From positions 1 to 64,000 of the IMG/VR virus record IMGVR_UViG_3300036816_000007: 64,000 bases of DNA, one strand, 5' to 3'. The notes under the pieces were generated by a model. That model made no database searches, was not told the DNA's origin, and worked only from the letters and a program-made list of their open reading frames with translations. A program made the position numbers and the translations under genes. Positions 1-20,527 of the stretch are shown here, in pieces. Source of the stretch: a virus. Every line of letters starts with the position of its first letter. Positions within the stretch are counted from its first letter, which is position 1.

Positions 1-3
1 CTT

Positions 4-231
4 TCAGGACACCTTATGCTCAATTCTCAGCTTGTCAGCAACCATCGCGATGAATTCCGAATTCGTCGGTTTCGATTTGCTGATGTTAATCGTATAGCCA
101 AACAGGTGGCTGATGCTGTCGATGTTGCCACGTGTCCAAGCCACTTCAATGGCATGACGGATGGCACGTTCGACGCGAGATGGCGTTGTTTTGAACTTTT
201 CGGCAATCGCTGGATACAGAAATCCGCTAGT
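4..231 (-). pseudogene. spo0A: 3' fragment of spo0A (C-terminal effector-domain end only)
   Basis: Minus-strand translation: [75 protein letters not shown]. This matches the remembered Spo0A C-terminus (...[28 protein letters not shown]...[20 protein letters not shown]). An in-frame TAA at 232..234 closes the frame, and there is no receiver domain upstream. Confidence 0.8.
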
Positions 232-284
232 TTAAACGGTCAACGTGACGCAAAGTTTAGCGTGAACATACGCGAAATAGTCTG

Positions 285-344
285 TCGCTATAGCGATAAA
301 GATTTCGCAGCTTTATCGGAACATTTAGCGTAAATTTATCGCTA
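285..344. promoter_or_regulatory. Repeated TTATCG(C/G) sites and a 12-bp palindrome upstream of int; candidate arm, operator or promoter region next to the att junction
   Basis: Perfect palindrome TCGCTATAGCGA at 285..296. TAGCGATAAA (291..300) is inverted relative to TTTATCGCTA (335..344). A third copy, TTTATCGG, lies at 312..319. Confidence 0.4.
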
Positions 345-360
345 AAGGAGGCGCTGATAA

Positions 361-1392
361 ATGGCGCAGAAAACACCGAAGTTTACGTTTGTATCGAAAG
401 AGGGTAAGCCGCTTAAGCTTGCGTTAGGAGATCGCATCGCGCAGTTTCTCGATTCTAAGCGCAGAGAACGCCGCGCAGTAAAAACAATTAGCGCATACGC
501 GCAAGTCTTGAATCAATTCGAGAAGTGGTATAACGAACGTGAGTATGACGAAATTAATACGGAGATACTTCGAGAGTATATCGAATATTTAACATTCGGA
601 AAGGTACGTTGGGACGATCATCCTACGAGCCCGAACGGCGCAAAAGGACTCTCGCCTCGGACGATAAACAACGTTATACGCAACATGCGAATTTTCTTCA
701 ACTATTTAATAGAAGAGAGAGTGATCGCATACAACCCGATGGAGGCGGTTAAGTATCAAGCGGAGGCAAAGGATACTTTCGATATTTTCACCGACGACGA
801 GGTCGTTAAGCTGTTGAGCGCGCCGAATCGGAGAGTGTACACAGGCCGCCGCGACTATTGCATGATGCTCCTTCTCTGTGATACTGGCCTGCGTATTAAA
901 GAACTAACGAGCCTGCGCGTATCAGACGTTAACTTTAAAACGCGGCAAATCATAGTCCGCGCTGAAACGTCAAAAACGAATATGACTCGCGTAGTTCCCA
1001 TCTCTCCGCTTACCACACGTGAGCTTGAAAACTTGATTTCGTACATGGACGTAAGCGAGGACGATCCACTATGGCTTACTCAATTCGGCGAACGCTATTT
1101 CGGAGATACGTTCGCGAAGATGCTTAAACTTTACGCTAAACGCGTAGGCGTAACCGGACCGCGAGTGTCACCGCATACTTTTCGGCATTACTTTGCAGTG
1201 AAGTTCTTACGCGAAGGCGGAGATGCGTTGACACTGGCGCGAATTCTAGGCCATACGTCACTTAATATGACGCAGGTATACGCGAAGTTTACGGGCACAG
1301 ATATACGCGAACAACACGATAAAGCAAGTCCAATTTCAAACTTGATTGATAAGGGAAATGAAAAAAAGCGGGGCAGGAAAGTATTTAAGTAA
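361..1392 (+). CDS. int: Tyrosine-type site-specific integrase
   Basis: 343 aa. SD AAAGGAGG lies upstream of the ATG. The C-terminal catalytic signature is SPHTFRHYFA...LGHTSLNMTQVYAKF (R..HxxR..H..Y). It has an N-terminal SAM-like domain. Confidence 0.95.
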   Translation: MAQKTPKFTFVSKEGKPLKLALGDRIAQFLDSKRRERRAVKTISAYAQVLNQFEKWYNEREYDEINTEILREYIEYLTFGKVRWDDHPTSPNGAKGLSPRTINNVIRNMRIFFNYLIEERVIAYNPMEAVKYQAEAKDTFDIFTDDEVVKLLSAPNRRVYTGRRDYCMMLLLCDTGLRIKELTSLRVSDVNFKTRQIIVRAETSKTNMTRVVPISPLTTRELENLISYMDVSEDDPLWLTQFGERYFGDTFAKMLKLYAKRVGVTGPRVSPHTFRHYFAVKFLREGGDALTLARILGHTSLNMTQVYAKFTGTDIREQHDKASPISNLIDKGNEKKRGRKVFK

Positions 1393-1548: not shown

Positions 1549-1947
1549 ATGATCGACATTACGCAGGAAGACCGCGCGCTCATCAAATCGCATATTATAC
1601 TGCCGCGTGTCCTCACCGCATTCGAACGTGACATTGCGCTCATCAACGCAACGTTAAAGACGCCCGGCCCGTACGTCGACGTTATAGCGGAAGCTCAGCG
1701 CAAGATCACCGCAGACATTTACGAGATCCGCAAACAGTTCCGTCAGCGCGGTATCAAAGTCTACGAAGAGGTGGCGGATAACGACGGAGTGACGGCGCGC
1801 TATAAATGTCGCGGATATGAATCGGAGATGAGGCTGCGGTGGTCTTCTATGGCTCCGCAGGCGGGCGTAATAATGCGGAAGTATCTAGGGTTGAACACGG
1901 ATAAGTACGTGGACCCGACGTTGCCGGAACGGATGCGGAATCTATAG
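1549..1947 (+). CDS. Hypothetical protein (int-proximal cargo gene)
   Basis: The ATG at 1549 is preceded by GGAGG. The longer track ORF from 1471 starts inside a TATAAT-like box and is unlikely. No recognisable motif. Confidence 0.6.
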   Translation: MIDITQEDRALIKSHIILPRVLTAFERDIALINATLKTPGPYVDVIAEAQRKITADIYEIRKQFRQRGIKVYEEVADNDGVTARYKCRGYESEMRLRWSSMAPQAGVIMRKYLGLNTDKYVDPTLPERMRNL

Positions 1948-2821: not shown

Positions 2822-3460
2822 TTATACGCCCTCCTTCGTAATCGTCACCGTTTTAGTTTTCGAATCCCACATTACCTTCGCGCCTAGTGCTTCCGCTACT
2901 GCGCGTACAGGTACGTAGGTAACGCCCTCTTCAACGTAACCCTCTCCGACTTTCTTTCCGCCAACATTGACGGTTGCTTTTACGTCCTTCTTCACTTCCG
3001 CATCTCCCTTCGCTTCATTCCCGTAATAAGTACGCAAGTACTCAGTAGGCTCGACAACTCCGGACTCTGTTGCGGTATACCCATATTGAGGCGTGCAGGC
3101 TTTCCGTACTTCGTAATGAAGGTGTGGTCCCGTCGAAACTCCCGTACTTCCTTGCTTGCCGACTTCCTGTCCACGTTTAACTCGCTGGCCGACCGTAACT
3201 GCAGCCGATGATAAATGCGCGTATACGTGTAGGAATCCTTTGTCGTCTTTGACCGCGACTGTGATCCCGTAGCCTCCAAAGCCTGATCCGGTAGCGCCCA
3301 TCTTCGCGTGGAGGACTTCCCCCGCAACAAACGCATAAATCGGCCCCGTTGCCGGACTGACTACGAGGTCTACCCCTCTGTGAAACTTCTTCGTCTTATG
3401 AACCGGATGAATACGGTATCCGAACGGACTTGTCAACCGATAACTTTCGAATGGATTCAT
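2822..3460 (-). CDS. Endolysin: M23 (LytM-type) peptidase with C-terminal copper-amine-oxidase-N-like wall-binding domain
   Basis: HRGVDL and GPHLHYEV metal-binding motifs of peptidase M23. The C-terminus GVTYVPVRAVAEALGAKVMWDSKTKTVTI is typical of the Cu-amine-oxidase N-terminal-like domain. Confidence 0.85.
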   Translation of the reverse strand: MNPFESYRLTSPFGYRIHPVHKTKKFHRGVDLVVSPATGPIYAFVAGEVLHAKMGATGSGFGGYGITVAVKDDKGFLHVYAHLSSAAVTVGQRVKRGQEVGKQGSTGVSTGPHLHYEVRKACTPQYGYTATESGVVEPTEYLRTYYGNEAKGDAEVKKDVKATVNVGGKKVGEGYVEEGVTYVPVRAVAEALGAKVMWDSKTKTVTITKEGV

Positions 3461-3461
3461 A

Positions 3462-3770
3462 TTAACGCTCCCCTTTCATTACGGATTTGATTTCCGTTAC
3501 ATCCAGCGACAGACCTTCGTACTGAGACGCCAACGTTTCGAACCTTCCCGTTAGATCCTCGGCCAATCGCATAAGACGTTCCTCTCTCCGCAGCGCGTCC
3601 GAATACATCTGATCCTCGCGCTCTTTGGCGGCGGCCAACATACGGTCTTCCCGCGCCTTACCGTCGTCCTGTATACGCGCCATCTGACGCCAAAGTAAGA
3701 ATCCGACAACGACGAATAGGACCGCAAATAGGCCCTCCTTAATCGCGCTATTAAATACCGCTTGCTCCAT
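3462..3770 (-). CDS. BhlA/UviB-type holin-like protein (N-terminal TM plus coiled coil)
   Basis: Start at the ATG at 3770, after GGAGG. GLFAVLFVVVGFLLW forms a TM helix, followed by a charged coiled coil. It lies immediately upstream of the endolysin. Confidence 0.55.
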   Translation of the reverse strand: MEQAVFNSAIKEGLFAVLFVVVGFLLWRQMARIQDDGKAREDRMLAAAKEREDQMYSDALRREERLMRLAEDLTGRFETLASQYEGLSLDVTEIKSVMKGER

Positions 3771-3951
3771 CGGCCGCCTCCGTTTCCGCCTCAATCTGCG
3801 CTAGTGCCGTTCCGATTTCGTGATCTATTGCGCGGAGTATATCCGCTTGACTGTCCGGATGGTATGCGAGGATTGCGGAGATGACTGCGGACAATTCCGG
3901 AACAGGTTGCGCCAGGTCTATCGTACATTCGAGTAACGTGCGTGATTTCAT
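3751..3951 (-). CDS. Hypothetical protein
   Basis: 66 aa with SD AGGAGG upstream. Overlaps the next gene by 20 nt. Confidence 0.55.
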   Translation of the reverse strand: MKSRTLLECTIDLAQPVPELSAVISAILAYHPDSQADILRAIDHEIGTALAQIEAETEAADGASGI

Positions 3952-4007
3952 TTACTGCGCCTCCTATCGTGTGGTAAATTTATCTAAAAACTACGAGGTG
4001 TACCCGC

Positions 4008-4337
4008 TTGAAAACGTCTGACAAAATACTCCGCCATCTCAGCGCGAATGGCCGTACGTCCCATAAAACGTTATGTGACGAATTATTTAGCGGAGATGAA
4101 ACGAAGTTCCGCGAATCACTTGCGTATCTGGAATCGAAAGGCTTCGTCAAATCGCGCCTATCAGATCAACGCACGTTACATACGTGTTTCTCTACGATTA
4201 CTGATGCCGGCCTTGCGCAGCCCCTCGTAGAGAAAGATGAGAAGTCCGCATCCAGACGGCAGTTCATCCGAGAAGTGACGATCGCCCTAATAAGCGCGGT
4301 TGCCGGAGCAGTCGTCGGTTACTTTTTAGGCTCCTAA
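4008..4337 (+). CDS. Membrane-anchored winged-helix protein (cargo gene, opposite strand)
   Basis: TTG start after GAGGTG. N-terminal wHTH-like segment (SHKTLCDELF...LAYLESKGFV) and a C-terminal TM helix, ALISAVAGAVVGYFLG. Confidence 0.5.
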   Translation: MKTSDKILRHLSANGRTSHKTLCDELFSGDETKFRESLAYLESKGFVKSRLSDQRTLHTCFSTITDAGLAQPLVEKDEKSASRRQFIREVTIALISAVAGAVVGYFLGS

Positions 4338-4426
4338 AACAACGCCGTGAGGACGTAGGTAACAACAAGTGACGCGGAGAACGATATCCCGGCAATCGTA
4401 AGCTCGCGGCGAAATCTTTTATCCAT
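4334..4426 (-). CDS. 30-aa hydrophobic peptide
   Basis: MDKRFRRELTIAGISFSASLVVTYVLTALF with SD ACGGAGGA at good spacing. Below the ORF-track cutoff. Confidence 0.4.
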   Translation of the reverse strand: MDKRFRRELTIAGISFSASLVVTYVLTALF

Positions 4427-4498
4427 ACGTTTTCCTCCGTTTCTACACAACGCAAATAAGGCCCCACCGATTGGCGAGACCCTAGCGTAATTACTCGT

Positions 4499-5059
4499 TT
4501 ATTTAAGCGCGGCGAGTGCGGCTTCTGCTTGCGCGATATCTGCGTTGGCTTTCGCAATAGCCTCTTCATACTCATTGAGCGCGTCTGTTCGATCCGAATA
4601 TGTCGAAGGTTCCATACCCATGGACTTATAATTCTCGATCTCAGCAGCGATCCGATCCCGACCTTCTGTTCGAGGTTTGAGTATGTTACTCTCAATAACG
4701 CTTATCGTTTCTTGCAGCCTTTCCTTCGACCATCCCGTGTACTTAGTATCGGAAGTCTCCGTACTTACTTCTGCCTGTTTGGTTGAGTCCTCTACGTCGC
4801 TTGTCGTAACTGTAATAGTTTTTCCGCTCACTTTGATATCCGCCCCTAACGCCTCAGATATTCCGCGAACAGGTACGTTAGCTTTCCCGTCGATAACCGC
4901 GCCTTTATCCGCGAGCTTTTTACCGTCAACAATAACGGTATATTCTCCAGTTACCTTTTTACCGACGAGTGACTTAACGCTGTCCGCAAATGCACCGGCA
5001 GTTGTCGAAAGAACGAATCCGATCAATATACCGCCGGCAATGTATGCTACTTTTTTCAT
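4499..5059 (-). CDS. Secreted protein with copper-amine-oxidase-N-like domain
   Basis: Signal peptide MKKVAYIAGGILIGFVLSTTAGAFA. GKANVPVRGISEALGADIKVSGKTITV resembles the endolysin C-terminal domain. Confidence 0.75.
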   Translation of the reverse strand: MKKVAYIAGGILIGFVLSTTAGAFADSVKSLVGKKVTGEYTVIVDGKKLADKGAVIDGKANVPVRGISEALGADIKVSGKTITVTTSDVEDSTKQAEVSTETSDTKYTGWSKERLQETISVIESNILKPRTEGRDRIAAEIENYKSMGMEPSTYSDRTDALNEYEEAIAKANADIAQAEAALAALK

Positions 5060-5109
5060 GCTTAACCCCTCCGCGAATTGGTGTATGGTTCATATTTCCT
5101 ATACTACCA

Positions 5110-7260
5110 TTACGCGGAGGTTGTTGTGAAGGTTCCGCCACCCGTTCCTGGCTGGTTCTGGGCATTTCCGTGATTATGGTGCGCGGTGGTGACTTGGTGA
5201 GTGTGTCCTGCTGGAGATTTTGAGTTGACTGCACTCCATAGAGAGTCGATCTGTGCCTGTAATCCATTAATCTGGTCAATCTGCAACCTATTCGTAAAGC
5301 TGACAGTTCCCTGCAACGTTATGGACCCACTCAACGCACCTAAACGCAAATTGCTCGTACCCATCACGTGTAATTCGTTAGACACCGCATATATCAAGCC
5401 CTGCGATTGGCTTGACGTGTTATAGTACGTATGTCCGCTAATATTCGCGGAAGGGTTCGTGCCTAACGTAACGCGGCGCGCTCCTAACGAATCGTAGAAT
5501 ACGAAACCGTCCGGATCGAGCTCGATACGCTCACCGCTTGTTGCCGTTCGAATACGCGCACCTGTAATCGTACTGCCCGACGTAATATCCCCGCGAAACT
5601 CACCGCTCTGTGCCACCATGTGACCGCTGGAATTGACGGTAAATACACCGTTGCCGACGTTAATCGACGCGCCGACGATCGCGCCATTCGTAAAGTTAGA
5701 CGAAAAGATATTCGCAGAGTTAGCGGTCAAGCGGTTCGCCGTAACGTTGCCCGCCATATCTACGCGGAACGGTGCGGAGTTAAACACCGCGTGTCCTGCC
5801 GCGATCCCGTTCGTATTTATCTGCGTGACGTTGTTGCCTGCGCCGATGAGCAACGATACGAAGCTACCGAGCTGGCCGACGATGGCAGGCGCCGCTATTC
5901 CGTTCGCATTAATCGCAGTCATTGCGGTAGCTCCGCCGTCCTTACTGAAAATGATCCCGTTGGACGTCATAATGACTTGATTGCGCGCGTCCGTCTTATC
6001 CTGGAGGACGATACCGCGCGTATCATATTTAATCTCCGTTTTCGAGTTGTGTACGTCATTGACCGCAGCCTTCGCAAACGCCTCGAATACTTCCGTCCGG
6101 ATCGTCCCGTTACTAATCAGGTTGCTGACGATATTCTTCGCTTTCTCAAGGTCCGCGATAATGTCCGTCATGTCACGCAGCATCACGTTAGCAATCGTAA
6201 CCTGCGAATGCTGTTCGTTACTGTACGGATACTCGATGAGCTCCGTAATACGCGCGGTTATTCCGTTCATGCCGAGCGCGGGGTCTACGCAAGTCACTGT
6301 ATCGCCGAGGTCGGGCGCCGGCTCCGCGCTATCTAGCTTGTGTATGTCCGCAGCCGATACGGAGATTTCCAGCGCCGGTACTTCACTCTCGCGCAGGGCC
6401 TTACGCTGTGCTTCGAGTAAATCCGAGTACGTCGTAATATTCTGATCGATGAGCTCGCCGTCGTAGAACGCGTTAACGTCGGTCGCCCAATACTGCGCGT
6501 ATGGCGATATCAAGTAGTTGACCGCGAGGTTTCCGTTAACAATCGCGCCAGGAACGGAATTGAGTAGCGTCCTCTCATCCGCAGTCAGCATCGACGCAGG
6601 CTGTCCGATTAGTGTCCGGCCGTCTTTCATTTGCGCGTGCATCCGCGTAACTAACGTATTCGTATCGTCCTTAAACGAAGAGGATACGATGTTCTTGCGG
6701 ATACGATACTGCAAGCCCTTGTCTACGCCGATCTTCTTACGCAAATGGATCACGTAATTATCCGGCTCGACCTCCGCGCCATACATCGAAATTACGGCGT
6801 TCAGCGCTTCGAGTGCGTTGCCGCGTCCGAAGTCCTTAACGTCGTGTAGCGGAAACGTATCGTCGATCGAGAACGTGTACTTACCGCCAGTGGCCGCGCT
6901 AATCGCCGTGGTAAGCTGCGAGATGTGGACGCCGTAAGCTTCGGAGATATACGACGCGTACGGATACTTATAGTCCGCGAGTTTGAACATAACGTGTGAG
7001 CACTCGATGCTTGCGGTCAACTTACGTCCATCACGCGTACGGCTCCGGCTGTTAACGATGTAGTATTGGCCGCGCTCATCTTTAACGTGTCCTTTGAGTA
7101 CGATCTTATCGAGATAGTCCGCAGACGACATCGGCACCAGGAAGGACAGCGAATAGTCCGAATTAATCCGCCTTGTCCGCTGAATATCGTATGCGTCAAC
7201 GAGAATGCCGATACGCTTGCGATTCTTATCGTACGATTCGAGATATTTCTTTTGCGCCAA
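5110..7260 (-). CDS. Tail-associated lysin / minor structural protein (Tal-like, prophage tail endopeptidase family)
   Basis: 716 aa. The N-terminus (ILVDAYDIQRTRRINSDYSLSFLVP...LKGHVKDERGQYYIVNS) is typical of the phage minor structural protein N-terminal region. Position is downstream of the Dit pieces. Confidence 0.8.
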   Translation of the reverse strand: MAQKKYLESYDKNRKRIGILVDAYDIQRTRRINSDYSLSFLVPMSSADYLDKIVLKGHVKDERGQYYIVNSRSRTRDGRKLTASIECSHVMFKLADYKYPYASYISEAYGVHISQLTTAISAATGGKYTFSIDDTFPLHDVKDFGRGNALEALNAVISMYGAEVEPDNYVIHLRKKIGVDKGLQYRIRKNIVSSSFKDDTNTLVTRMHAQMKDGRTLIGQPASMLTADERTLLNSVPGAIVNGNLAVNYLISPYAQYWATDVNAFYDGELIDQNITTYSDLLEAQRKALRESEVPALEISVSAADIHKLDSAEPAPDLGDTVTCVDPALGMNGITARITELIEYPYSNEQHSQVTIANVMLRDMTDIIADLEKAKNIVSNLISNGTIRTEVFEAFAKAAVNDVHNSKTEIKYDTRGIVLQDKTDARNQVIMTSNGIIFSKDGGATAMTAINANGIAAPAIVGQLGSFVSLLIGAGNNVTQINTNGIAAGHAVFNSAPFRVDMAGNVTANRLTANSANIFSSNFTNGAIVGASINVGNGVFTVNSSGHMVAQSGEFRGDITSGSTITGARIRTATSGERIELDPDGFVFYDSLGARRVTLGTNPSANISGHTYYNTSSQSQGLIYAVSNELHVMGTSNLRLGALSGSITLQGTVSFTNRLQIDQINGLQAQIDSLWSAVNSKSPAGHTHQVTTAHHNHGNAQNQPGTGGGTFTTTSA

Positions 7261-7280
7261 AGTTGCGCCTCCTTTCCGCG

Positions 7281-7802
7281 TTAGTAGAGATACTTGTCGC
7301 GATGCGTTACGCGAGTCCGGACAGTGCGCGCCGCTTCCGTATCACGGTACGTAATCTTATTCGCTCCATAGACGAGATCGAAGAAATCGCCGGTCATTAA
7401 GTGAAGCGCAGTATCTCCGTTAATCGTCACCGTTTGCCGCTTCGTATCAATTACGATAACGTCGCCGGGTTTGAAGTCGCCACTATACGCAATTTCGTTT
7501 ACATGCGCGTGTGTTACGTTTACTACGAAATCCGTCGCCGTAGTTATAGACGCGCCAAATAACCGCTCGCGGACTAATTGCGCAAGCAGTTCGGTTGCTG
7601 TCGATATCTCCGCGTACATCGCCATCTCGCGGGTAAATTCCGCAGATAGGTCCGTCGCGCTTTCGAACGTAACCGTAACGGGAAAGTCCACGCTGATTCG
7701 CGTAGACAAGTCCGTTGCTGATTCGACAGTTACTGTAAAGAGCGCCTCGAACGAGAGTGTCCGGTTAAAAGGAGCCCGGTTAAATGGCGCTCGATTAAAC
7801 AT
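7281..7802 (-). CDS. C-terminal half of distal tail protein (Dit) fused to a novel 4x repeat N-terminus
   Basis: FKPGDVIVIDTKRQTVTINGDTALHLMTGDFFDLVYGANKITY aligns by eye with the SPP1 gp19.1 C-terminus FNTGDTLVIDCHERSVTLNGQD...LKPQVNTYL. The N-terminal ~100 aa carry four xxATDLxx repeats and an FNRAP tandem. Confidence 0.7.
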   Translation of the reverse strand: MFNRAPFNRAPFNRTLSFEALFTVTVESATDLSTRISVDFPVTVTFESATDLSAEFTREMAMYAEISTATELLAQLVRERLFGASITTATDFVVNVTHAHVNEIAYSGDFKPGDVIVIDTKRQTVTINGDTALHLMTGDFFDLVYGANKITYRDTEAARTVRTRVTHRDKYLY

Positions 7803-8025
7803 CGGACTTGCCGCCCGCCGTCTCCGCGTATTCCTCTTCCGTGATCCAACCGTTAGTGAGAGCGCGGTCGAGGTCCACCTTGTTGTACGTGGTGGATGCG
7901 TACTCTTTAACCGGCGCGATGTAGGCGGGTATGATGTCCGGAAATGACTTCGTACCGTGGCGGAAGATTGCGGTTGAGTACGCGACTTTAAGCGAATTGA
8001 TTATCGTTGCTGACGCTGTTCCCAT
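7795..8025 (-). CDS. XkdX-like small fibre-associated protein
   Basis: The C-terminus NGWITEEEYAETAG resembles the XkdX motif (..IT.EEY..ITG). Confidence 0.5.
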   Translation of the reverse strand: MGTASATIINSLKVAYSTAIFRHGTKSFPDIIPAYIAPVKEYASTTYNKVDLDRALTNGWITEEEYAETAGGKSDV

Positions 8026-8331
8026 TTACGCAGCACCTCCGTTAGCTAACGTTTCCCACAAGTCGATGACAGCGAGATTAAGCGCGGCTGTTTCCGCTTC
8101 GGCTGCGGATAGGCGCGCTTTAATCTCCGTTAATCCTTCGGCTGGCGTACCTTGCTCTGAATCAGATTTCAACGATTCGTCCAACACCGCTTTCCCGTCT
8201 TGCCAACGATAATAACCAGCATTGATTCCAATGGGAAGGGGTGTAGGAATGTCCACTTCTTGGTATCCATTGTATTCATACTCAATAATGTCCCGGATGA
8301 TGTTTCCGTCCGATTTGATATAAAATTTCAC
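8026..8331 (-). CDS. XkdW-like protein
   Basis: 101 aa with a small N-terminal domain plus a C-terminal coiled coil. Gene order fibre / W-like / X-like matches PBSX xkdV-W-X. Confidence 0.45.
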   Translation of the reverse strand: MKFYIKSDGNIIRDIIEYEYNGYQEVDIPTPLPIGINAGYYRWQDGKAVLDESLKSDSEQGTPAEGLTEIKARLSAAEAETAALNLAVIDLWETLANGGAA

Positions 8332-8341
8332 AGGGCACCTC

Positions 8342-10195
8342 CTATTGAATTAGAGCGATAATCTTGCGGCTATCTCCGGCCGATCCTCCCTCTTTTGCGT
8401 AACCAATGACCCCAACATCTGTCTCTAACATAAGAGCAACAATGTTACCTACCTTTGCGACTTTTTCGCTGGGTATTTTGAATACATTTACAAATGGAGC
8501 GCTATTAGAAGCAAGCGCCAAGTAACTTCCGTCAGGAGTTATCGCTAATCGGTTTGCAGATTGGCTCTTTGCATCTCTTGAATCAGTAGCCCGGTACATC
8601 TGATCTCCTCGTTGGCTATATGTTAGAATGTCTGGACTGTTGTTAGACTGGACTAAAAATAATTTCATTTTGCTTGGATGATACACAGCATCCGATGATT
8701 GAACAGGAGTTTTAGTCTGAGTATCAGGAACTTTATTAAAAACGTCTCCAGCACGCTTATATGTTGTTAAAGTAGCTCCGCCGAAATGCGTAACCGTTAG
8801 ATAATTTTCGTCATATGAGAAATCAAGACCTCCACCTAGTCCAGGAGGAACTATAGAAGGGTCTGTAATCTTTGACAATACGTCACCTGAACGTTTGTAA
8901 ATCAAGATATACGGGGCTACTGTGTAAGAAATTGCTATGAATACACCCGAAGGTGAGATCGCAATATTTCTAGGTGCGCTAGAGAGCGGATTAACACTTG
9001 GGTCAGCCAGTTTTGTGAACGTATCACCAGTGCGCTTGTACACCATGAAGTAAGGTGCGACACTGAGTATCATGTAGATGTACGTCCCATCGTTAGCAGC
9101 GCGGAGGTATGCAATTGATCCGCCGGGTAACACTGTTGGGTCAGGTAACTTGGTAAACGTATCACCCGAACGCTTATAGATCATAAGGTAAGGCGCAACA
9201 CCAATCCCTACATAAAGGTAATCAGCGTTTGGAGAAAATGCTAAGGCGTTGGGTAATCCTCCAGGCAGAACGCTTGGATTTGCCAATTTAGTGAACACGT
9301 CGCCTGAGCGCTTGTATATCAACAGAAACGGAGTAGCATTCGATCCTACAACCATGTAATCGTTTGTCATAGCTATTCCGATGCTCGCCGCAGGAGGCGC
9401 TGTCGAGAGCGCGGGCAACAGTTCTATTGGCGGAGTATACATCCTCACCATATCCCCTTGTGCGATATCTTCACTGTAGGTGACGGTCACTTCCGTCTGA
9501 CCAGGTATTTTCACCTCCCCGCCGCCGCTATCTGCTAAAAAATCCGATCCTACTTTACGGAAGGTGTAGGGCTTCCCAACCAGTAGATCACCAGCTGCGT
9601 AGAAACTACCGTCCTGTTTTTTAAGTGGTGACGCACCTAATCCATTGATATTAAGCGTCGCTCCAGCGGCATTTGTTACGTGTGGCACAATCGTGATTCC
9701 AAATCCGTCCGGTAGCGCTGTAGGCGCAGGACTTAGCGTAGCGACATATGCCGATGCAGTTCCCGTAGTAACCGCGTATCCTGGCTGACGTATATAATTC
9801 GCAGTAACAGCGCTAATCTTTTCGTCGGTGTACGTGTTAGCACCGCCTAAAGCGTCGTCCGCGTATCCCTGCGCCCTGACGAGAGCATCCGCAATATTAG
9901 CGCGTCCCGCCTCGTAGTCATACGCGGTATGATTCCGCGCCGCCTGCGTTCCTGCCGCCCACCCTTTCGCTGTACCTTCGAATCCACGCGTACATCCAGT
10001 GAGCGTATTGCCCGTTTTCCCCGTATAGCGGATTGTCTCCGCAGTCTCATCGCTTCCCACCGTCACGAGGTTCGGAGCGGCCGGAAGCTTAGACGCATCC
10101 AGTACGTCAATACTCGTTGCGGATGCGTTAATATCTGCGGCGAGCTCCGTTCCCGGGGAATTAATCATCGCAGCGTACATCGGTAATTGCGCCAT
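8342..10195 (-). CDS. Tail fibre / receptor-binding protein with C-terminal 7-bladed beta-propeller
   Basis: N-terminal fibre-anchor motif (TIRYTGKTGNTLTGCTRGFEGTAKGWAAGT) and a shaft motif (LNINGLGASPLKKQDG). These are followed by seven ~48-aa repeats built around YKRSGD.F.K. Confidence 0.75.
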   Translation of the reverse strand: MAQLPMYAAMINSPGTELAADINASATSIDVLDASKLPAAPNLVTVGSDETAETIRYTGKTGNTLTGCTRGFEGTAKGWAAGTQAARNHTAYDYEAGRANIADALVRAQGYADDALGGANTYTDEKISAVTANYIRQPGYAVTTGTASAYVATLSPAPTALPDGFGITIVPHVTNAAGATLNINGLGASPLKKQDGSFYAAGDLLVGKPYTFRKVGSDFLADSGGGEVKIPGQTEVTVTYSEDIAQGDMVRMYTPPIELLPALSTAPPAASIGIAMTNDYMVVGSNATPFLLIYKRSGDVFTKLANPSVLPGGLPNALAFSPNADYLYVGIGVAPYLMIYKRSGDTFTKLPDPTVLPGGSIAYLRAANDGTYIYMILSVAPYFMVYKRTGDTFTKLADPSVNPLSSAPRNIAISPSGVFIAISYTVAPYILIYKRSGDVLSKITDPSIVPPGLGGGLDFSYDENYLTVTHFGGATLTTYKRAGDVFNKVPDTQTKTPVQSSDAVYHPSKMKLFLVQSNNSPDILTYSQRGDQMYRATDSRDAKSQSANRLAITPDGSYLALASNSAPFVNVFKIPSEKVAKVGNIVALMLETDVGVIGYAKEGGSAGDSRKIIALIQ

Positions 10196-10207
10196 CTAAT
10201 CGCCTCC

Positions 10208-10606
10208 TTAGTTCGTAAACTTAACGGATGTTCCGTCCTTGAGAAACCGCGGCTTATCGCCAGTTTGGATCGTACGCGGATTGTCTACCGCTTTGGACCA
10301 TAAAAGATCCCCGCCAGTCAACGCGCTTCTTAGCCCGATATGTGTAACGAGGCCCCAATCCGCAGTCGCCGTGGGAAACTCGATATCCGCCGCGTTTTTA
10401 ACCGTTTGATTGCCGCCTTCAAGCGTAGGGGCCGCGAAAGTAATCGGAATCCGTACGTAGCTGCCTCCGGTTACTTCCGAGCCTGTATCCGCCGGAGTGG
10501 GATCGGATTTATATAACGCGAGGTAAATCGTGGTGGGCGCGGTATATGGTACATTGCGCAACACATGGTTAAAGATAGCTGCCGATAGCTTATTCGAAAT
10601 GTTCAA
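10208..10606 (-). CDS. Conserved phage tail/fibre-associated protein of unknown function
   Basis: 132 aa, IYLALYKSDPTPADTGSEVTGGSYVRIPITF...WGLVTHIGLRSALTGGDLLW. I recall this pattern from phage tail modules but cannot name the family. Confidence 0.55.
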   Translation of the reverse strand: MNISNKLSAAIFNHVLRNVPYTAPTTIYLALYKSDPTPADTGSEVTGGSYVRIPITFAAPTLEGGNQTVKNAADIEFPTATADWGLVTHIGLRSALTGGDLLWSKAVDNPRTIQTGDKPRFLKDGTSVKFTN

Positions 10607-10617
10607 ACTAACGCCTC

Positions 10618-11160
10618 CTAAAGTGTGTATTCGTTCGTAATGCGGAACCCGCGAATCGTTGTCGTGCCCGTATTCGTCAGCGTAATAACCGGCTGTGCGT
10701 TAACATCGGCCGCCGAGTCAACCGTTATCGTTTCGGGCGATTTCGTAATCTCAACTTCCGTCACCTTTTCCGCGCCAGTCGGCCACGGATCGTTCATCTT
10801 GAGCGCGATATTAACTTCGCGACTACCGACAGCTCCGAGCGCAAGCGTCCCGTTATAAACCGCGCGGTAATACTTGCCGGGCATATCCGCAAACTCCAGC
10901 GTCAGCTCTCCGCGCTTGGCGTTAAATATCTGCGCGAGTTTCGCAAGTGTGGCGTGGAATTGCGCGCCTGGCGTCGTAATAAACAGCGTCATATCAATCG
11001 TGCGAGCTCCGTATGTGCTGCCGAAATCGAGCAATCCGTCCGTATCCGCGAGCTTCACGGTGTACTCGTCAGACTCCGGTAAAACAGGAAGACGCCGCTC
11101 AAGGAGAGCAGCGCCTATTGACGAAAGCCATACGTTATTCACTTTTACATCGTAGTTCAA
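10618..11160 (-). CDS. N-terminal part of distal tail protein (Dit)
   Basis: EFADMPGKYYRAVY and LKMNDPWPTG match SPP1 gp19.1 TFSDEPSRTYYGRY and FYCQDPLKYG. It stops after ITNEYTL, where normal Dit proteins continue. The start overlaps the TMP stop. Confidence 0.75.
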   Translation of the reverse strand: MNYDVKVNNVWLSSIGAALLERRLPVLPESDEYTVKLADTDGLLDFGSTYGARTIDMTLFITTPGAQFHATLAKLAQIFNAKRGELTLEFADMPGKYYRAVYNGTLALGAVGSREVNIALKMNDPWPTGAEKVTEVEITKSPETITVDSAADVNAQPVITLTNTGTTTIRGFRITNEYTL

Positions 11161-14100
11161 CGCGTTTTCACCCCCTGCGTTTGGAGACGTTGGGCAACGC
11201 GGGCACGCTCGTCATACATAGTCGCAACGTCCGCTTTATCCGCGAGTGTGACGTCGCTGACGGACATATCGAACTGGTTTATGACTTGCGTTGGTGCCGC
11301 CGCAGTTGTTTCGGAAGGACCGGTCGCAATCATCCGGAAGAGGTTGCCGATTTGCGCGTCATTCAGAATCATTTCACCAGCGTGCGCGATTACCGGTACA
11401 GCGGAACCCGGCGCGCCTTGAACAACTCCGCCGACTTTAAACTGCTGTAGCTTGCCGGTATCCTTGTCGATTCCGTAGAGATTACGCAATTCCTCGTTAC
11501 GGGCCGTCAGTCGCGCCATCTCTGCTGTATCGCCCGAAGCCTTAGCCGCTGCCCATGCGTCTTTGTTCGCGTTGTACTCCGTTAAGTCTCCGTTTGTACC
11601 AGCCGAAGGAACTCCGGTACTTAGCGTAGCCATCTTCGCGTTGTATTGCGTGACGAACGAGTCCAGTGACGCGAGGATCGTAGCGTTAGCTTCCGCGTTG
11701 GCATTCGTACGGAACTCCGAGATTGCCGCTTCGATAAACTTGACGTCGTCCGCGTGGTTATCGAACGCATCTTTCAGCGCATCGTACTGGCGCTGCGTCT
11801 CCGTTTTCTCATCGTCAAAGGCGGACAAACGCGTATCCTTCTCGTCCTGTAGCGCGGCCTTCTGCGATTCGAGATCCCGTTTGCGGAGTTCGCGGTCGTG
11901 CTCGAGCTCCATGCGCGCTACTTCTTTGATCAGGTCTTCGCGCTCCTGGATACCGTCCGGACCTACCGCGGAAGCCAGTAAGTCGATACGCGCCAGCTTC
12001 TCGGAACGTTGCGTCTCCCAATCCGCGTCGGAATTGAACTCGGCTTCCTTCGCAAGCAGTGCGTCAAGCGCCGCAATCTTCTCATCCTGCGCGGAGACAT
12101 ACGCCTTCTTGCGCTCCTCAATCGCAGCGAGATCGGCCTTTAGCGCGGCGTCTACGTTGGACTTCTCCGTCTTCAGGAGATTATCCGCGAGCTTCTGCGT
12201 TTCGGTAACGAGTTTCTTGCGCAGGTTATACAGTTGATCCTCCGCCTTCTCGTAATAGTCCGAATCCTTTTCGTGGCGATCACGAACACGCGTCCATGCG
12301 TCGATCTTCATCTGCGTGATTTCGAGTTCGGATTTGCCGGCGGTTTCCATACGGCGCTCTTCCTTACTGATCCACTTTTCGGAGGCAGAGTACGCGTCGG
12401 CTACCGCTTTCTCCTGCGCCTTGACGAGCTCTTTGCGCGCCTTGTAAAGCGACTCGTCCGCATCCTTATACTGATCGGAGTCCTTTTTATAGCGGTCACG
12501 TACGCGAGTGAGGGCGGCGATCTTCATTTCGGCGACGGCAACTTCGGATTTACCGGAATCTTGCATACGGCGCTCCTCTTTATCGATCCAGGTTACGGAA
12601 AAGTCATAGCGTGATTTAACGCTATCTTCCTGCAGGCGCTTGAGTTGCAAATTTAGTGTCCGCGCGTCTTCTACCGTTTCCTTGAGGTGCTGCGCGTGAG
12701 CTTTCCGCAACTTTTCGTATGCCTTAATCTGCTGATCCGCGGACCAATCGTACATGTCCGCTTGATAACGGATCGTGGCGAGGTCCGCGTTATACGCTTT
12801 TTCGCGGAGGTCTTTTGCGACTTCGGCTGCGGACTTCTCTTTCTTGGCTTTCGGGGTTTTCGCCTTCTTGCCTGCCGCTTTCTTCGTTTTGTCTTCCCGA
12901 AGGCTAATACCTGATCCGCTCTTTGCGGGAGCATAGGCAGCGCCAGAAGTTAGAGACTCTTTAGCACGCGCAATTTCCAACGCAGCTTGCTCCGCCTTAA
13001 CCTGCTTCTCGTACGCCTGATTAAGTTGCTCCTCCGCGCCCCCATTTGCGAACTTCTCAAACGATTTGTTGACACTAACTCCACCAACAGCAGTGACGTT
13101 TTTCGCAAAGGGAGCCGACTGTACGCCAGCAACTGCGCTCATAGCTTTCGCTAGACTCTCCAGGTTACTGATCTGCGCGGCAATAGACGCTTTGTTTGCG
13201 TTTGCCATCGCCTGCAGATTGTCTATATAAGCGTTAGCTGCCGCGGCAGATTGATCGATAAATGAACGTTCAGCCGCAATATGCTCTCCGATAATATCAA
13301 CGTTCTGAATGCGAATGCGGCCGGATTCATCCATTTTTGCGTTGAGATCCGGATATTGCTTACGTAACTGTTCCGTAGTATTAATGAGTTCTTGTTTCTG
13401 CGCGTCATCAAGTTTCTGCGCGGACGAGAGCTCGTTATACTTCGAAAGTAGCGCCTCCATCGATTCAACCTTACGGTACTTAGCAGCAAGGTCTGCGATC
13501 TCTGCCTCTTTCATTTGAAGTAGCGCCGGAGTAGATTCGTTTATCGCGTCGTTCATCATCGCTAACTTGCGGGTCGCATCCTCTACGCCGTCGTATCCCA
13601 TCGTCCGAAGCTTATCGTCCATGTCCGCCAACTCTTCGTTGATGTCGATCATCTCGTCGAGTAAAGCTGGAGTCCCCAGCCCTTGCTCCTGTAACGATTC
13701 AATCTCGTTTAGGCGAGACTGTAACTCGGCCCTTTCCGCAAGAACTGTATTAAGCTCCGTCGTCTGCTCCTGTAACTCCTGAACCTGTGCAACCGTTCGG
13801 TCCATTGGCGATTGAGCCAGCGTATTGTTTAACTGGCGCTGTGCCTCGTCATGTTTGCGCACGGCATCCGCAGCTTCGTTATTGCTTGAAATAAGTGCAG
13901 TAACTCCCGCTGCTACTAAGCCGAGTACGACAGATAGCGTAAGCAAAATCGGATTCGTCACCGTCAACAATTTAAACGCGAGTGATATCGCGCCAATAGC
14001 TGCGGCCAATCCCAGTCCAACAGTGGTCGCAGTCGTGAACGCTATGATTGCGTTCTGCAGGACCGGGTCCATATTGTTGAATCCGAGAAGTAGCGCGGAA

Positions 14101-15440
14101 ACACCCTCCGCAACACTCCGGATAACCGGCGCAAATTTATCACCTACCGTAATACCAACCGCCTCAAGCGCGGACTGTAACTCCTGAATCGCGCCGTTTA
14201 ACGTATCCATTTGCGTGTCTGCAATCTGCGCTGCCGTTCCTCCCGCGTTGTTCAACTCTTCCGTAAACGATTCGAGATCGGATTGCCCCGCCTTTATGAG
14301 CGTCAGGAATCCGGAAGCAGCCTCTTGGCCGGCGACGATGCTTGCGGCTTGGGCACGCTGCGCCTCCGTTAAGTTGCCGAACCCTTTTTCGAACTGTCCG
14401 ATAATATTCGCAAACGGGAGGAAGTTGCCGGCCGCATCCGTCACGCTGACTCCGAGTTGCTTCATGACATACGCGACTTCGTTCGTTGGACTTGCGAGCC
14501 TCAACATGATTGCGCGGAGTTGAGTACCGGCCATCTCGCCTTGAATACCCGCGTCGGACAATTTCGCAACGGCTGCGGATGCCTCTTCGATGCTGACACC
14601 GAGGTTTGCCGCGATCGGAGCGATGTACTTCATTCCCAGGCCCAACTGCTCAATGTTTGTGTTGGAGTTCGTCATTGTTTTAGCCATAACGTCGACTACG
14701 CTACTTGTTTCGCTGGCATCCAACTGGAAGCCCGTAAGGATATTCGATGCAATATCCGCAGTACGCGCGAGTTCCATCTGCCCCGCTGCTGCGAGGTTCA
14801 GTACGCCGGGCATCGCGGCCATAATTTCGTTTGTCTTAAATCCCGCCATTGCGAGGAAGCTCTGAGCATCAGCTGCTTGCCCCGACGTAAATACCGTTGT
14901 AGCTCCGAGGTCAATCGACTGCTGCCGTAGCTTCTCGAACTCTTCACCGGTCGCGCCTGTTATCGCCTTGACTTTCGCCATGGATTGCTCGAAAGTTGCC
15001 GCAGTTTGAACGGCCTTTGTGATAACAACAGCCATTGCTGCCCCAAGCGCACCGTACGCAAGTCCGAGCTGCTTAACTTCCGCGCTGACTCCGTTGGTTG
15101 CTTTCGCATTCCGCTCCATCTCGCCTGTTATCTTCGCAATCTCCGTACTACTTGCGCCAAGACGTTTCATCTCCGCGGATACCGCTTCGAGTTGTTTCCG
15201 CAATAGCTCCGGATTAGCCCTACGCAAGCTAGCGTTGATCTTCTCAATCTGCGCAGCGGAAGCGCCAACTTCGGATAGCCGCGTATTAAGCGCAGAAAAA
15301 GAAGAGGACGCCGATTTTCCGGCATCCCCGAGTTCCTTCGCTTTAGTTTTCGCGCGGTCAATCGCTTGATTATATCCGCTGACGTCCGCAGTAATCGTTG
15401 CGCGGATTCCTCCAACATCTACCGTACTAATCGCTATCAC
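11157..15440 (-). CDS. Tail tape measure protein
   Basis: 1427 aa. TP901-type core (FLAMAGFKTNEIMAAMPGVLNLAAAGQMELARTADIASNIL), hydrophobic central segment and long coiled coils. Confidence 0.95.
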   Translation of the reverse strand: MIAISTVDVGGIRATITADVSGYNQAIDRAKTKAKELGDAGKSASSSFSALNTRLSEVGASAAQIEKINASLRRANPELLRKQLEAVSAEMKRLGASSTEIAKITGEMERNAKATNGVSAEVKQLGLAYGALGAAMAVVITKAVQTAATFEQSMAKVKAITGATGEEFEKLRQQSIDLGATTVFTSGQAADAQSFLAMAGFKTNEIMAAMPGVLNLAAAGQMELARTADIASNILTGFQLDASETSSVVDVMAKTMTNSNTNIEQLGLGMKYIAPIAANLGVSIEEASAAVAKLSDAGIQGEMAGTQLRAIMLRLASPTNEVAYVMKQLGVSVTDAAGNFLPFANIIGQFEKGFGNLTEAQRAQAASIVAGQEAASGFLTLIKAGQSDLESFTEELNNAGGTAAQIADTQMDTLNGAIQELQSALEAVGITVGDKFAPVIRSVAEGVSALLLGFNNMDPVLQNAIIAFTTATTVGLGLAAAIGAISLAFKLLTVTNPILLTLSVVLGLVAAGVTALISSNNEAADAVRKHDEAQRQLNNTLAQSPMDRTVAQVQELQEQTTELNTVLAERAELQSRLNEIESLQEQGLGTPALLDEMIDINEELADMDDKLRTMGYDGVEDATRKLAMMNDAINESTPALLQMKEAEIADLAAKYRKVESMEALLSKYNELSSAQKLDDAQKQELINTTEQLRKQYPDLNAKMDESGRIRIQNVDIIGEHIAAERSFIDQSAAAANAYIDNLQAMANANKASIAAQISNLESLAKAMSAVAGVQSAPFAKNVTAVGGVSVNKSFEKFANGGAEEQLNQAYEKQVKAEQAALEIARAKESLTSGAAYAPAKSGSGISLREDKTKKAAGKKAKTPKAKKEKSAAEVAKDLREKAYNADLATIRYQADMYDWSADQQIKAYEKLRKAHAQHLKETVEDARTLNLQLKRLQEDSVKSRYDFSVTWIDKEERRMQDSGKSEVAVAEMKIAALTRVRDRYKKDSDQYKDADESLYKARKELVKAQEKAVADAYSASEKWISKEERRMETAGKSELEITQMKIDAWTRVRDRHEKDSDYYEKAEDQLYNLRKKLVTETQKLADNLLKTEKSNVDAALKADLAAIEERKKAYVSAQDEKIAALDALLAKEAEFNSDADWETQRSEKLARIDLLASAVGPDGIQEREDLIKEVARMELEHDRELRKRDLESQKAALQDEKDTRLSAFDDEKTETQRQYDALKDAFDNHADDVKFIEAAISEFRTNANAEANATILASLDSFVTQYNAKMATLSTGVPSAGTNGDLTEYNANKDAWAAAKASGDTAEMARLTARNEELRNLYGIDKDTGKLQQFKVGGVVQGAPGSAVPVIAHAGEMILNDAQIGNLFRMIATGPSETTAAAPTQVINQFDMSVSDVTLADKADVATMYDERARVAQRLQTQGVKTR
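12159..12590 (-). repeat. Tandem 216-nt (72-aa) duplication inside the tape measure gene
   Basis: WIDKEERRMQDSGKSEVAVAEMKIAALTRVRDRYKKDSDQYKDA... is followed by WISKEERRMETAGKSELEITQMKIDAWTRVRDRHEKDSDYYEKA... Confidence 0.8.
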
Positions 15441-15446
15441 CTCTCC

Positions 15447-15809
15447 TTATCGTCCGTGCCGTAGCTGCCTCCGCATGGCTTCGAATCCTGATTCGTCAAA
15501 CTCCGCTTTAGCTGCGGTATTAAAGCCGGCCCGTTCTCGCAAGCTGCCTACGAGTTTCTTCATGTCGTCGCCGGTCGAGTGCTGAACAGATAGTGACGTA
15601 AGCCAGTCCTCCGCATCGACTTTCCGCTTAGATTCGAGCGCGGTAAAAATGTCCATGACGAAATAGCCCGTTTCGAACTCAACTTGCGTCTTGCCGAGAC
15701 GAACCGCGCACTCTATGAAAAACTCGTCAATTGTTACTCTGCGTTCGGCGCGTCCGGAGTCTGTTTCGCTACTACTCCCGCCAGGTTCAGGACGCCTCGC
15801 CCGTTTTTT
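15447..15809 (-). CDS. -1 frameshift extension of the tail chaperone (gpGT-like fusion product)
   Basis: The -1 frame is open from the slippery heptamer to the stop at 15447: KKRARRPEPGGSSSETDSGRAERRVTIDEFFIECAVRLGKTQVEFETGYFVMDIF... Confidence 0.7.
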   Translation of the reverse strand, partial: KKRARRPEPGGSSSETDSGRAERRVTIDEFFIECAVRLGKTQVEFETGYFVMDIFTALESKRKVDAEDWLTSLSVQHSTGDDMKKLVGSLRERAGFNTAAKAEFDESGFEAMRRQLRHGR

Positions 15810-16129
15810 AACAGTTCACCGAAGTTATTCTCTTTCGCCACCGCGCCGTAGAACGCAATCAATTCGTCAATGGACGCGTTCTTTTCGATGTGCTCCTCGT
15901 CAATGCCCGTCAGGACGGCCGTCACGCGCACGATATCGTCGAAGGATTCGCGGATTGCTGCAACGAAATAAGCCGCCTTGTCTCCGGGAGCAGCGGTCAT
16001 TACACTCACGATGAGTTGCGGTACTGCGTGGATGCTATCGAATAGGTCGCGCCATTGTGCAATCGTGATCTTGCGCGGAGTTACCGTCTTGCCACCGATC
16101 TTGTATTTGTTAGCGCCGATTAATCGCAA
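15734..16129 (-). CDS. Tail assembly chaperone (gpG-like)
   Basis: 131 aa, located between the major tail protein and the TMP. Contains the slippery site near its 3' end. Confidence 0.75.
   Translation of the reverse strand: MRLIGANKYKIGGKTVTPRKITIAQWRDLFDSIHAVPQLIVSVMTAAPGDKAAYFVAAIRESFDDIVRVTAVLTGIDEEHIEKNASIDELIAFYGAVAKENNFGELLKNGRGVLNLAGVVAKQTPDAPNAE
15803..15809 (-). promoter_or_regulatory. Programmed -1 ribosomal frameshift slippery heptamer A_AAA_AAC
   Basis: Minus strand reads ctg ttA AAA AAC ggg in the chaperone zero frame (X_XXY_YYZ). Confidence 0.7.
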
Positions 16130-16194
16130 TATTATCGCCTCCGTTAAAGTAAAAAGACGACTCCGAAGAGCCGCCCCGTATATTTGTCGCGCTA

Positions 16195-16725
16195 TTAAGG
16201 TGTTGCCGTGATTGTTTCGTCGCCCAACACCGCAACTACGCCGTCCTCGTCCGGAGTCGAACGCAGAGTAACGTTAGTGATCCGTTCGTTTTCGTTGTCA
16301 TACGCGTAGCTCAGGTCCGTCTCGGAGTACGCGAGTGGCAGCGTAACCCAGAAGTTCGGATCGTTGAGCTTCGCAAGCGGTTTGATTACGGCTTTCTTCG
16401 CGGTATCGATCAAGTTCATGCCGACGCCCGTTTTAATCTCGATCTTCGAATCCGTACCGTCAGTTACGACAGAGGCGCCGGTCATGATCTTCGGAATAAC
16501 GGTCAGCTCATACTCTGCGAACGGAATAGTAACGCTGCAGTTACGGCCCGTAATCCTTTTGCCGACGATTGTCTCGCCCGTTTGGTCCGTCAGTTGATCT
16601 CGGTAAGTCGTTTCGGTTGTGAACGATACACCACCGATCGTAGTTTCAAACGTTACCTTACTGACTCCGTCGCCATATTCGACGATAGCTGGGCCGAGCT
16701 CAATCTTGGAAAAGTTTTGTGCCAT
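16195..16725 (-). CDS. Major tail protein
   Basis: Start at the ATG at 16725, after GAGGAGGA. 176 aa and beta-rich. Position is upstream of the chaperones. The track ORF extension to 16875 lacks support. Confidence 0.75.
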   Translation of the reverse strand: MAQNFSKIELGPAIVEYGDGVSKVTFETTIGGVSFTTETTYRDQLTDQTGETIVGKRITGRNCSVTIPFAEYELTVIPKIMTGASVVTDGTDSKIEIKTGVGMNLIDTAKKAVIKPLAKLNDPNFWVTLPLAYSETDLSYAYDNENERITNVTLRSTPDEDGVVAVLGDETITATP

Positions 16726-16781
16726 TAATAGAATCCTCCTCGTATTTGGACAACAAAAAAGGCCGCCCACTAAGAGCTGCC

Positions 16782-17156
16782 TTAAATCGTTGTCAATGTG
16801 AAATTTAATGAATACATCGTGCGATCGTTCGCGTCCTTGCCGAGATATATCGGAGAGGACTGATTCGCGCGACATTTAACTACGCGGACAGTCCCGAAGT
16901 AAAACTCGCCCCTACTCGCCAGATCCTCGTATATCGCGTCAGCTATTTGCGTAGCCTTGGCCGATGATTTAGCGCGCACCAACACTTGAAACGCTGGCCT
17001 TCGCTTACTCGTCCACTCACTCGGTTCGTATCCGCCACTCATACGTACATATGCGCAGTCGTCCGGATTGCCTGACGCGAACTCGTTTGCAACGTAAGTA
17101 AACGGAACAGCTACGCGCAGATACGCAGTGATATCCGGCACTCCTAAAATCGCCAC
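16782..17156 (-). CDS. Putative tail terminator / tail-completion protein
   Basis: 124 aa. Position is between the gp10-like protein and the major tail protein. Assignment is by synteny. Confidence 0.5.
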   Translation of the reverse strand: MAILGVPDITAYLRVAVPFTYVANEFASGNPDDCAYVRMSGGYEPSEWTSKRRPAFQVLVRAKSSAKATQIADAIYEDLASRGEFYFGTVRVVKCRANQSSPIYLGKDANDRTMYSLNFTLTTI

Positions 17157-18266: not shown

Positions 18267-18281
18267 ACGTTACACCTCCGT

Positions 18282-18527: not shown

Positions 18528-18583
18528 TTTGCGATCACCTCCGTTTATTAAGGGCGACCGAAGCCGCCCACGTTCTATTGCGA

Positions 18584-19702: not shown

Positions 19703-19741
19703 GTGATTGTTTCCTCCTTAAATTTGGGAAAAGTGGGCATA

Positions 19742-19773: not shown

Positions 19774-19775
19774 AG

Positions 19776-20447: not shown

Positions 20448-20527
20448 ATCAGTTCCTCCCGCGTTTAAGCGCCGCGTAGCGCATAGTATCCGTCAGTTTA
20501 ACGACGTATCGTAGGTCGTGCCCAACG

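Follow-up and report, generated by a model that had tools for sequence, protein, structure and literature searches.

Why a phage genome should begin with the tail of spo0A, the gene for the sporulation master regulator, directly beside an integrase gene is the question raised by the left end of the 64,000-nucleotide stretch of IMG/VR record IMGVR_UViG_3300036816_000007 analysed here (positions 1–64,000, hereafter the window). The first-pass annotation regarded this end as a prophage junction at which only the remains of the host gene were left, and offered two readings: a lysogen with a disrupted spo0A that excision would restore, or a phage whose opposite end provides a substitute for the Spo0A C-terminus. 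Our analysis indicates that window positions 1..1392 very probably constitute the integration module of a temperate phage of ~65.7 kb that targets the 3′ end of spo0A and is of the 3′-end-replacing type. The features of the module and of the phage body are listed in Table 1.

Table 1 Features of the window that bear on integration at spo0A, with positions on the 64,000-nt stretch.
Feature	Position	Strand	Description
Block R of the att site	1..219	−	71 spo0A codons (7..219), stop codon (4..6) and three further bases (1..3)
Boundary between R and the integrase-side arm	220..234	−	Four non-Spo0A codons, TSGF (220..231), and an in-frame TAA (232..234)
Integrase-side arm (P′)	235..360		Repeated TTAGCGTAAAYTTATCG / CGATAAA-type motifs, presumed arm-type integrase sites
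Tyrosine integrase	361..1392	+	343 aa; oriented away from the spo0A fragment; ORF intact
ORF directly after the integrase	1549..1947	+	phrog_34234 (E = 8e-38); function not assigned by PHROGs
Phage body	2822..64000	−	Lysis, tail, head and packaging genes, then replication and early genes (PHROGs/Pfam)
Early-gene stretch	31350–31934, 35097–35678, 38931–39707, 46136–46633, 48128–48772	−	GIY-YIG nuclease, dNMP kinase, ThyX, RuvC-like resolvase, RNase T-like exonuclease

The 75-residue translation reported for the minus strand of 4..231 was reproduced exactly, together with its stop codon and the in-frame TAA that closes the frame upstream. Its assignment to the C-terminus of Spo0A was borne out by a profile search, in which the peptide matched Pfam Spo0A_C with an E-value of 4.3e-28 (score 97.8 bits, cut-off 25) and aligned to positions 41–104 of the 104 in the profile. 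The fragment is 97% identical to residues 202–272 of P. dendritiformis Spo0A and 82% identical to residues 197–267 of B. subtilis Spo0A (tblastn E = 2e-35). The original count of ~75 remaining spo0A codons has to be lowered to 71, since the homology to Spo0A begins at the leucine codon at 217..219 and the residues TSGF in front of it are not part of Spo0A. The homology boundary therefore lies at 219/220, where the DNA reads …ATCACGAAAACC/CTGTATCC in the host and …AGCGGATTT/CTGTATCC in the window. Other parts of spo0A were found nowhere else in the 64-kb window, and the copy present, which has no receiver domain and covers only Spo0A_C positions 41–104, is a gene fragment and not a functional response regulator gene.

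The outer edge of R (TGAAAG) coincides exactly with the start of the window, suggesting that the source record was cut or broken at the R repeat. Two origins of the copy in the window are possible, an orphan left where the integrase side of a lysogen meets the host or the one copy of an attP, and these look alike locally. A prophage junction holding the only remains of a host gene was thus not established, because the phage’s own attP has an identical local layout; as the window begins at the outer edge of the repeated block, the copy seen may be borne by the phage.

As the first-pass annotation had observed, what lies upstream of the fragment is not a receiver domain; it is a repeat-rich stretch of ~130 bp followed by a tyrosine integrase. 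The integrase matched the Phage_integrase profile (PF00589, E = 3.7e-33) and SAM-like N-terminal domains (PF13102, PF13495 and PF02899), and its catalytic R, K, HxxR, H/W and Y positions are kept across nine relatives; an exact look-up of the product returned no record. Relatives of the integrase at 65–97% identity all adjoin a spo0A 3′ fragment. The integrase-side arm contains direct repeats at 249–266/317–334 and inverted repeats at 288–300/335–347. The TTAGCGTAAAYTTATCG motif and its variants are repeated in both arms (in the opposite arm at 239–255 and 328–344 of the related contig end L017) and are kept between phages, and they are presumed integrase-binding sites; a simple count of CBGATAAAB showed no enrichment window-wide. 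The ORF directly after the integrase has homologues in the same position in locus L028 and, in locus L022, ~3 kb from the lineage-A integrase and near other integrase-like ORFs, and its product could be a candidate accessory or directionality factor.

Conservation is concentrated in this part of the phage. The integrase-side arm is 100% conserved with a relative (L010) that is ~86% identical over the rest of the phage, and the module from −204 to +515, which extends from 204 nt past the stop codon to 150 nt into the integrase gene, is 93–100% conserved between two phages that are otherwise 80–88% identical and whose first early genes adjoining the module are unrelated. The arms, R and the part encoding the integrase N-terminus are the best-conserved ~700 nt of the phage. 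This conservation, the arm motifs and a terminator in the far arm (see below) fit a working module.

The rest of the window, from ~1.4 kb to 64 kb, is all phage, and position 64000 still is. It encodes an endolysin, tail proteins, tape measure, major head protein, portal and large terminase, along with a DNA polymerase, a Toprim primase and a DnaB-like helicase, and nearly all of these body genes are co-directional with spo0A. Taken as part of the explanation as a whole, the element is in all likelihood a temperate, siphovirus-like Paenibacillus phage of that ~65.7-kb size. The sigma-like factors that the phage had been credited with came down to one 134-aa protein (34262–34666, minus strand), probably the one meant, which contains a Sigma-70 region 4 domain alone (Pfam E = 1.7e-9). 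By its looks it is a small phage regulator of transcription rather than a sigma factor of sporulation, and it was all that the search for a phage-encoded sporulation sigma factor produced.

Window positions 1–25000 gave no megablast match among GenBank phages, no cultured phage resembling it was present in the INPHARED set, and the exact junction 40-mer had 0 matches in IMG/VR. A tblastn search of GenBank phages with the fragment retrieved 14 ‘Bacteriophage sp.’ virome records, of which the three inspected (L002, L003 and L004, corresponding to MT835504, MT835718 and MT835737) contain complete host spo0A and are thus bacterial DNA filed as phage, not examples of a phage-borne fragment. Upstream of spo0A there is an ORF of spoIVB size in L002 and L004 and one of recN size in L002, both names being assigned from ORF size and position only.

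An extension past the right-hand end of the window had been proposed as a check. A 104-aa protein from the right end of the window is also encoded on a 3.4-kb Logan contig (L001). The 1641 nt from 1742 to 3382 of this contig are 100% identical to window 62360..64000, and a further 1741 nt extend past the window. This extension contains two early genes, followed by a non-coding arm that is conserved, and its last bases are CTGAGAATTGAGCATAAGGTGTCCTGAAAG. This end (L001 1..30) is the reverse complement of window 1..30, comprising the last eight spo0A codons, the stop codon and AAG. L001 therefore links window 64000 to window 1..30, which implies a circle of 65,711 bp and places a spo0A 3′ end, through its stop codon, at the far end of the phage.

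For the exact phage the far-end contig holds only 30 nt of R, and for a relative the corresponding length is 197 nt: the P-arm end of its 65-kb contig matches window 1..197 at 100% identity. This IMG/VR contig, 3300012153_000001 (65,189 bp), encodes an integrase 97% identical to that of the window, and its ends share an exact 123-nt terminal overlap inside the spo0A fragment. One end has the order integrase, arm and fragment, with the contig starting within the fragment, while the other (L017 1..194) has 194 nt of the fragment through the stop codon, then the non-coding arm and the early genes. The contig may be a true circle or an assembly cycle arising from two identical R copies in a lysogen; both origins require a copy of R attached to the far end of the phage. 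Taken together, the closures in L001 and 3300012153_000001 show that a copy of the spo0A 3′ end, running through the stop codon, lies between the two arms of the phage. The far arm, next to the stop codon, contains a 12-bp terminator hairpin with a T-run in the orientation of spo0A, and spo0A would thus receive a phage-made terminator. At 200–262 of L001, a perfect TATAAT lies ~12 nt before the strong terminator hairpin, which precedes the first early gene, an arrangement reminiscent of antitermination control.

The host side of the join was found on a metagenomic contig. A 38-mer from the fragment matched two contigs of one JGI metagenome, one being 3300012153_000001 and the other a 95.7-kb host contig (L035) that carries the 5′ part of spo0A and ORFs with the size and position of recN and spoIVB, assigned by analogy with the P. 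dendritiformis locus L005. The host contig reads …GGTGCTATCACGAAAACC/CTGTATCCAGCG… in DNA and …GAITKT/LYPAIA… in protein and ends within the fragment. Its last 106 nt are 100% identical to window 114..219 and follow in frame from the spo0A 5′ part; the fragment in the window, which is free of frameshifts, is therefore identical in DNA to a host gene over this overlap. Joining the 5′ part of L035 to the R block of the window yields an uninterrupted Spo0A of 272 aa. Three further sequences (L030, L037 and L038) were rejected as the native attB: they encode the same protein with many synonymous DNA differences (~7–15% by eye), indicating that they come from other species and not from the host. 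The spo0A 5′ part of the host was not found together with R and the phage arm on any contig of the exact phage, and for the window phage we thus infer the intact-gene state.

That state was observed directly in related integrated elements. A search for the integrase that covered one genome per species identified eight loci in seven Paenibacillus and Cohnella genomes, with integrases 65–87% identical to that of the window, and a spo0A 3′ fragment divergently oriented from the integrase was present in all eight. Host genes of the bkd operon and DUF2627 lie on the far side of the fragment in L025, L027 and L028. In L028 (P. terrigena) the tail genes are collinear with those of the window, identifying it as a true lysogen of a related phage; a search of IMG/VR with the R block of this lysogen for its far junction gave 0 matches, as did a search of GTDB genomes with a degenerate 25-mer for both arms. 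A whole 5-kb element was found in P. paridis (L025), with the order orphan, integrase, 3.6 kb, full-length spo0A, spoIVB and recN, in which the orphan and the end of spo0A form direct repeats of 183 nt that are 100% identical and end at the stop codon. The orphans are not always preserved, being frameshifted in L029 and shortened in L022 and L027. The fragment beside the integrase comprises 18, 20, 41, 45, 56, 60 or 71 codons (L022–L029, at ~9680–9880, upstream of the integrase). Its edges are sharp and lie at the end of the integrase-side arm, and the fragments of integrases that are 87% identical differ by 53 codons.

A second lineage of integrases, ~29% identical to that of the window, uses the same gene end, its members being located directly after the restored spo0A. 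In P. dendritiformis (L005) a full spo0A is followed by an integrase, which is frameshifted in this case, a 6-kb island and a 91-aa orphan, with repeats of 231 nt at 86% identity. In metagenome-assembled genomes of human-gut Clostridia (L031) the order is full spo0A, integrase, an island of ~8.7 kb and a 79-aa orphan, and the 217-nt repeats are 100% identical. In all, full-length spo0A was present beside the element in L005, L025 and L031–L034. The picture that emerges is of a spo0A 3′ end at which elements of at least two integrase lineages land repeatedly, in Paenibacillaceae and also in gut Clostridia, each with a copy of the spo0A tail of its own.

Several observations concern the content of these elements. 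The island of L031–L034 (human-gut scaffolds, Clostridia-like) encodes a 985-aa protein, a DUF5986 protein and an HTH/Peptidase_M78 protein, the island genes of L033 are in an inverted duplication, and the 79-aa orphan protein of this group is indexed in 129 blocks of the sequence collection. P. macquariensis carries a tandem array at the end of spo0A, at 268–316 kb of NZ_FTNK01000001.1 (L023 and L029) with both lineages and at least three orphans, one of them frameshifted. An element of P. amylolyticus (L008) that ends in a Spo0A orphan contains a SEFIR/TIR-domain protein (5488–6915) and a HicAB pair (4751–5390), which are cargo of the defence type. The proteins listed by a homology search with the 75-aa peptide were all ≤132 aa and included no full-length Spo0A; the candidate step of that search seems length-biased, and its counts are therefore not counts of orphan fragments.

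These arrangements can be accounted for by recombination between a phage-borne and a host-borne copy of R. The phage circle would have the order integrase, motif-bearing arm of ~130 bp, R (219 bp), a second arm of ~200–260 bp with motifs and hairpin, and early genes. Recombination of phage R with host R would fuse the host 5′ part to one copy of R with the reading frame kept, producing a lysogen with the order recN, spoIVB, intact spo0A with the phage terminator, early genes, the rest of the phage, integrase, arm and orphan R. The orphan copy of 71 codons would thus lie at the integrase side, with the host downstream genes beyond it. In such a lysogen spo0A would not be interrupted and its protein sequence would be unchanged; the gene thus most probably remains intact after integration. 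The window phage itself probably integrates in this way.

The reading in which the prophage splits spo0A and its excision restores the gene, as for skin in sigK, SPβ in spsM or the Listeria comK prophage, draws on the view from within the window, where only the last 71 codons, closed off by the TAA, stand beside the integrase; sporulation genes are moreover known targets of such elements (PMC10747680, PMC5025042). It is not supported by the other junctions. The spo0A 3′ end, stop codon included, is present again at the far end of the phage, the host 5′ part continues in frame into R, and every complete integrated relative examined has a full spo0A with both Response_reg and Spo0A_C. The genes interrupted by the known switches, furthermore, are those of the mother cell, where excision is terminal; spo0A, by contrast, is active before the cell divides. 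We consider a gene-disrupting switch extremely unlikely; control of the whole sporulation cascade by a prophage is an appealing idea, but it is not supported. The other reading in the first-pass annotation, that the phage supplies a Spo0A C-terminus at its opposite end, is supported by the far-end copy and by the full spo0A plus orphan of the complete relatives, and is in essence correct. It is also very improbable that the fragment is a decaying leftover beside the inactive integrase of a grounded prophage, with no current att function. Such decay does occur elsewhere, as in the frameshifted and shortened orphans and the frameshifted lineage-B integrase described above, but the integrase of the window is an intact ORF with its catalytic residues, the arms and R belong to the most conserved ~700 nt, the fragment has neither a frameshift nor a difference from host DNA, and the gene set of the phage is full, while one of its relatives assembles as a circle.

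The length of R raises the possibility that the Spo0A tail has a job of its own, either as an expressed peptide or decoy (it contains the recognition helix and the sigma-A contact) or as a 219-bp homology arm through which RecA could mediate insertion and excision. R is far above a minimal core, related integrases manage with 18–20 codons, its complete identity with host DNA would fit homogenisation by homologous recombination, and an internal GTG would open an ORF of 46 aa. Against this, the frame is closed by the TAA, that GTG is the sole start and no ribosome-binding site precedes it by eye, and the peptide lacks Spo0A_C positions 1–40, which we take to be the first three helices of the C-terminal domain. 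Long 3′ duplications are also normal at att sites of this kind, as in e14 and icdC (PMC13626634). A separate function of the tail is very improbable, and we return to 3′-end replacement as the preferred explanation.

Within 3′-end replacement, strand exchange may take place at TGTATCC, the 5′ edge of R, or in the last ~18 codons, the part common to all members of the family. Put differently, each variant could exchange at its own 5′ edge, or all could exchange within the last ~18 codons, with the codons before them as a passenger of variable length. The crossover that had been placed ~225 bp before the spo0A stop codon holds as the boundary of homology, at 219 nt, which may or may not be the actual point of strand exchange. 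The variation between 18 and 71 codons among close relatives fits poorly with one fixed crossover at the 5′ edge of R. Single-nucleotide differences between two P. macquariensis orphans cluster after ~codon 250, which hints at exchange in the last ~18 codons. In an alignment of the related integrases the differences are spread, with no cluster specific to core binding, and the comparison of arm ends between relatives gives a hint at most.

The proposed mechanism has well-known counterparts. In integrators of the lambda-Int family that enter the 3′ ends of tRNA and tmRNA genes, such as mycobacteriophage L5, P4 and HP1, attP carries the 3′ segment of the target, reaching from the crossover to where the gene ends, flanked by arms with repeated integrase sites, and the gene is regenerated on integration. 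The spo0A elements differ in having a protein-coding target and a common block of 219 bp instead of 15–60 bp. They share with the type a carried 3′ segment between two arms, an intact gene with a displaced repeat (in the relatives L025, L005 and L031) and an in-frame join. A protein-coding precedent is provided by e14 and phage 21 at icd of E. coli, where icd is described as continuing into the prophage, with a C-terminal pseudogene, icdC, at the other end (PMC13626634, citing Hill, Gray & Brody 1989, PMC210168), and excision recombines both icd copies. In both systems an element with a tyrosine integrase enters the 3′ part of a protein gene of essential function and brings a substitute 3′ end. 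Here, by comparison, the target is spo0A of spore-forming Firmicutes, the repeat copies are identical in DNA in the cases seen (100% over 183–219 nt) and not diverged, the integrase lies beside the displaced copy, and a single family of integrases goes with carried fragments of anything from 18 to 71 codons.

The elements of endospore formers known from sigK (skin), spsM (SPβ), yabG, gerE and spoVFB disrupt the reading frame, and the gene is rebuilt only when they excise in the mother cell (PMC5025042, PMC10747680, PMC10745906). The spo0A elements resemble them as mobile elements that sit in a sporulation gene beside a recombinase, but here the gene is rebuilt on integration, and spo0A acts before asymmetric division. 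The spo0A system falls outside this class of switches, since the interruption of the ORF that defines the class was not found. In the ‘active lysogeny’ of Listeria monocytogenes, comK is truly split by its prophage and is restored only by excision. The phage described here likewise resides in a developmental or regulatory master gene; in contrast to comK, no split is indicated.

While integration of the classic 3′-end-replacing kind is known, we could not find spo0A described as its target, or as an attachment or integration site at all, in the literature searched, which was limited. The points of note are the identity of the target as the sporulation master regulator, the use of its end as a hotspot by several lineages, and the co-orientation of the phage early genes just behind it. 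Transcription of spo0A rises sharply at the onset of sporulation. Because the early operon is co-oriented directly behind spo0A, with only the phage hairpin between them and a TATAAT before the hairpin, the early genes may take spo0A transcription as an input through regulated read-through or antitermination, a suggestion that we regard as speculative and unlikely. If it is true, early-gene expression, be it for induction or for entry of the genome into the spore, would be coupled to the sporulation decision of the host, and spo0A would be a chosen listening post and not just a conserved landing pad. It would also explain why integrases of Bacilli and Clostridia, from two or more lineages that are unrelated, converge on one gene end.

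Independently of this possibility, the short genes annotated as ‘Spo0A C-terminal domain-containing protein’ that were examined (P0003, P0005, P0008 and P0071) are insertion footprints, and such orphan Spo0A footprints mark the edges of phages and islands, some with defence cargo. In lysogens, the last 18–71 codons of spo0A and its terminator are phage DNA. This phage-derived end of spo0A could matter for spo0A-based typing, for regulation at the 3′ end of the gene and for the interplay between phages and sporulation.
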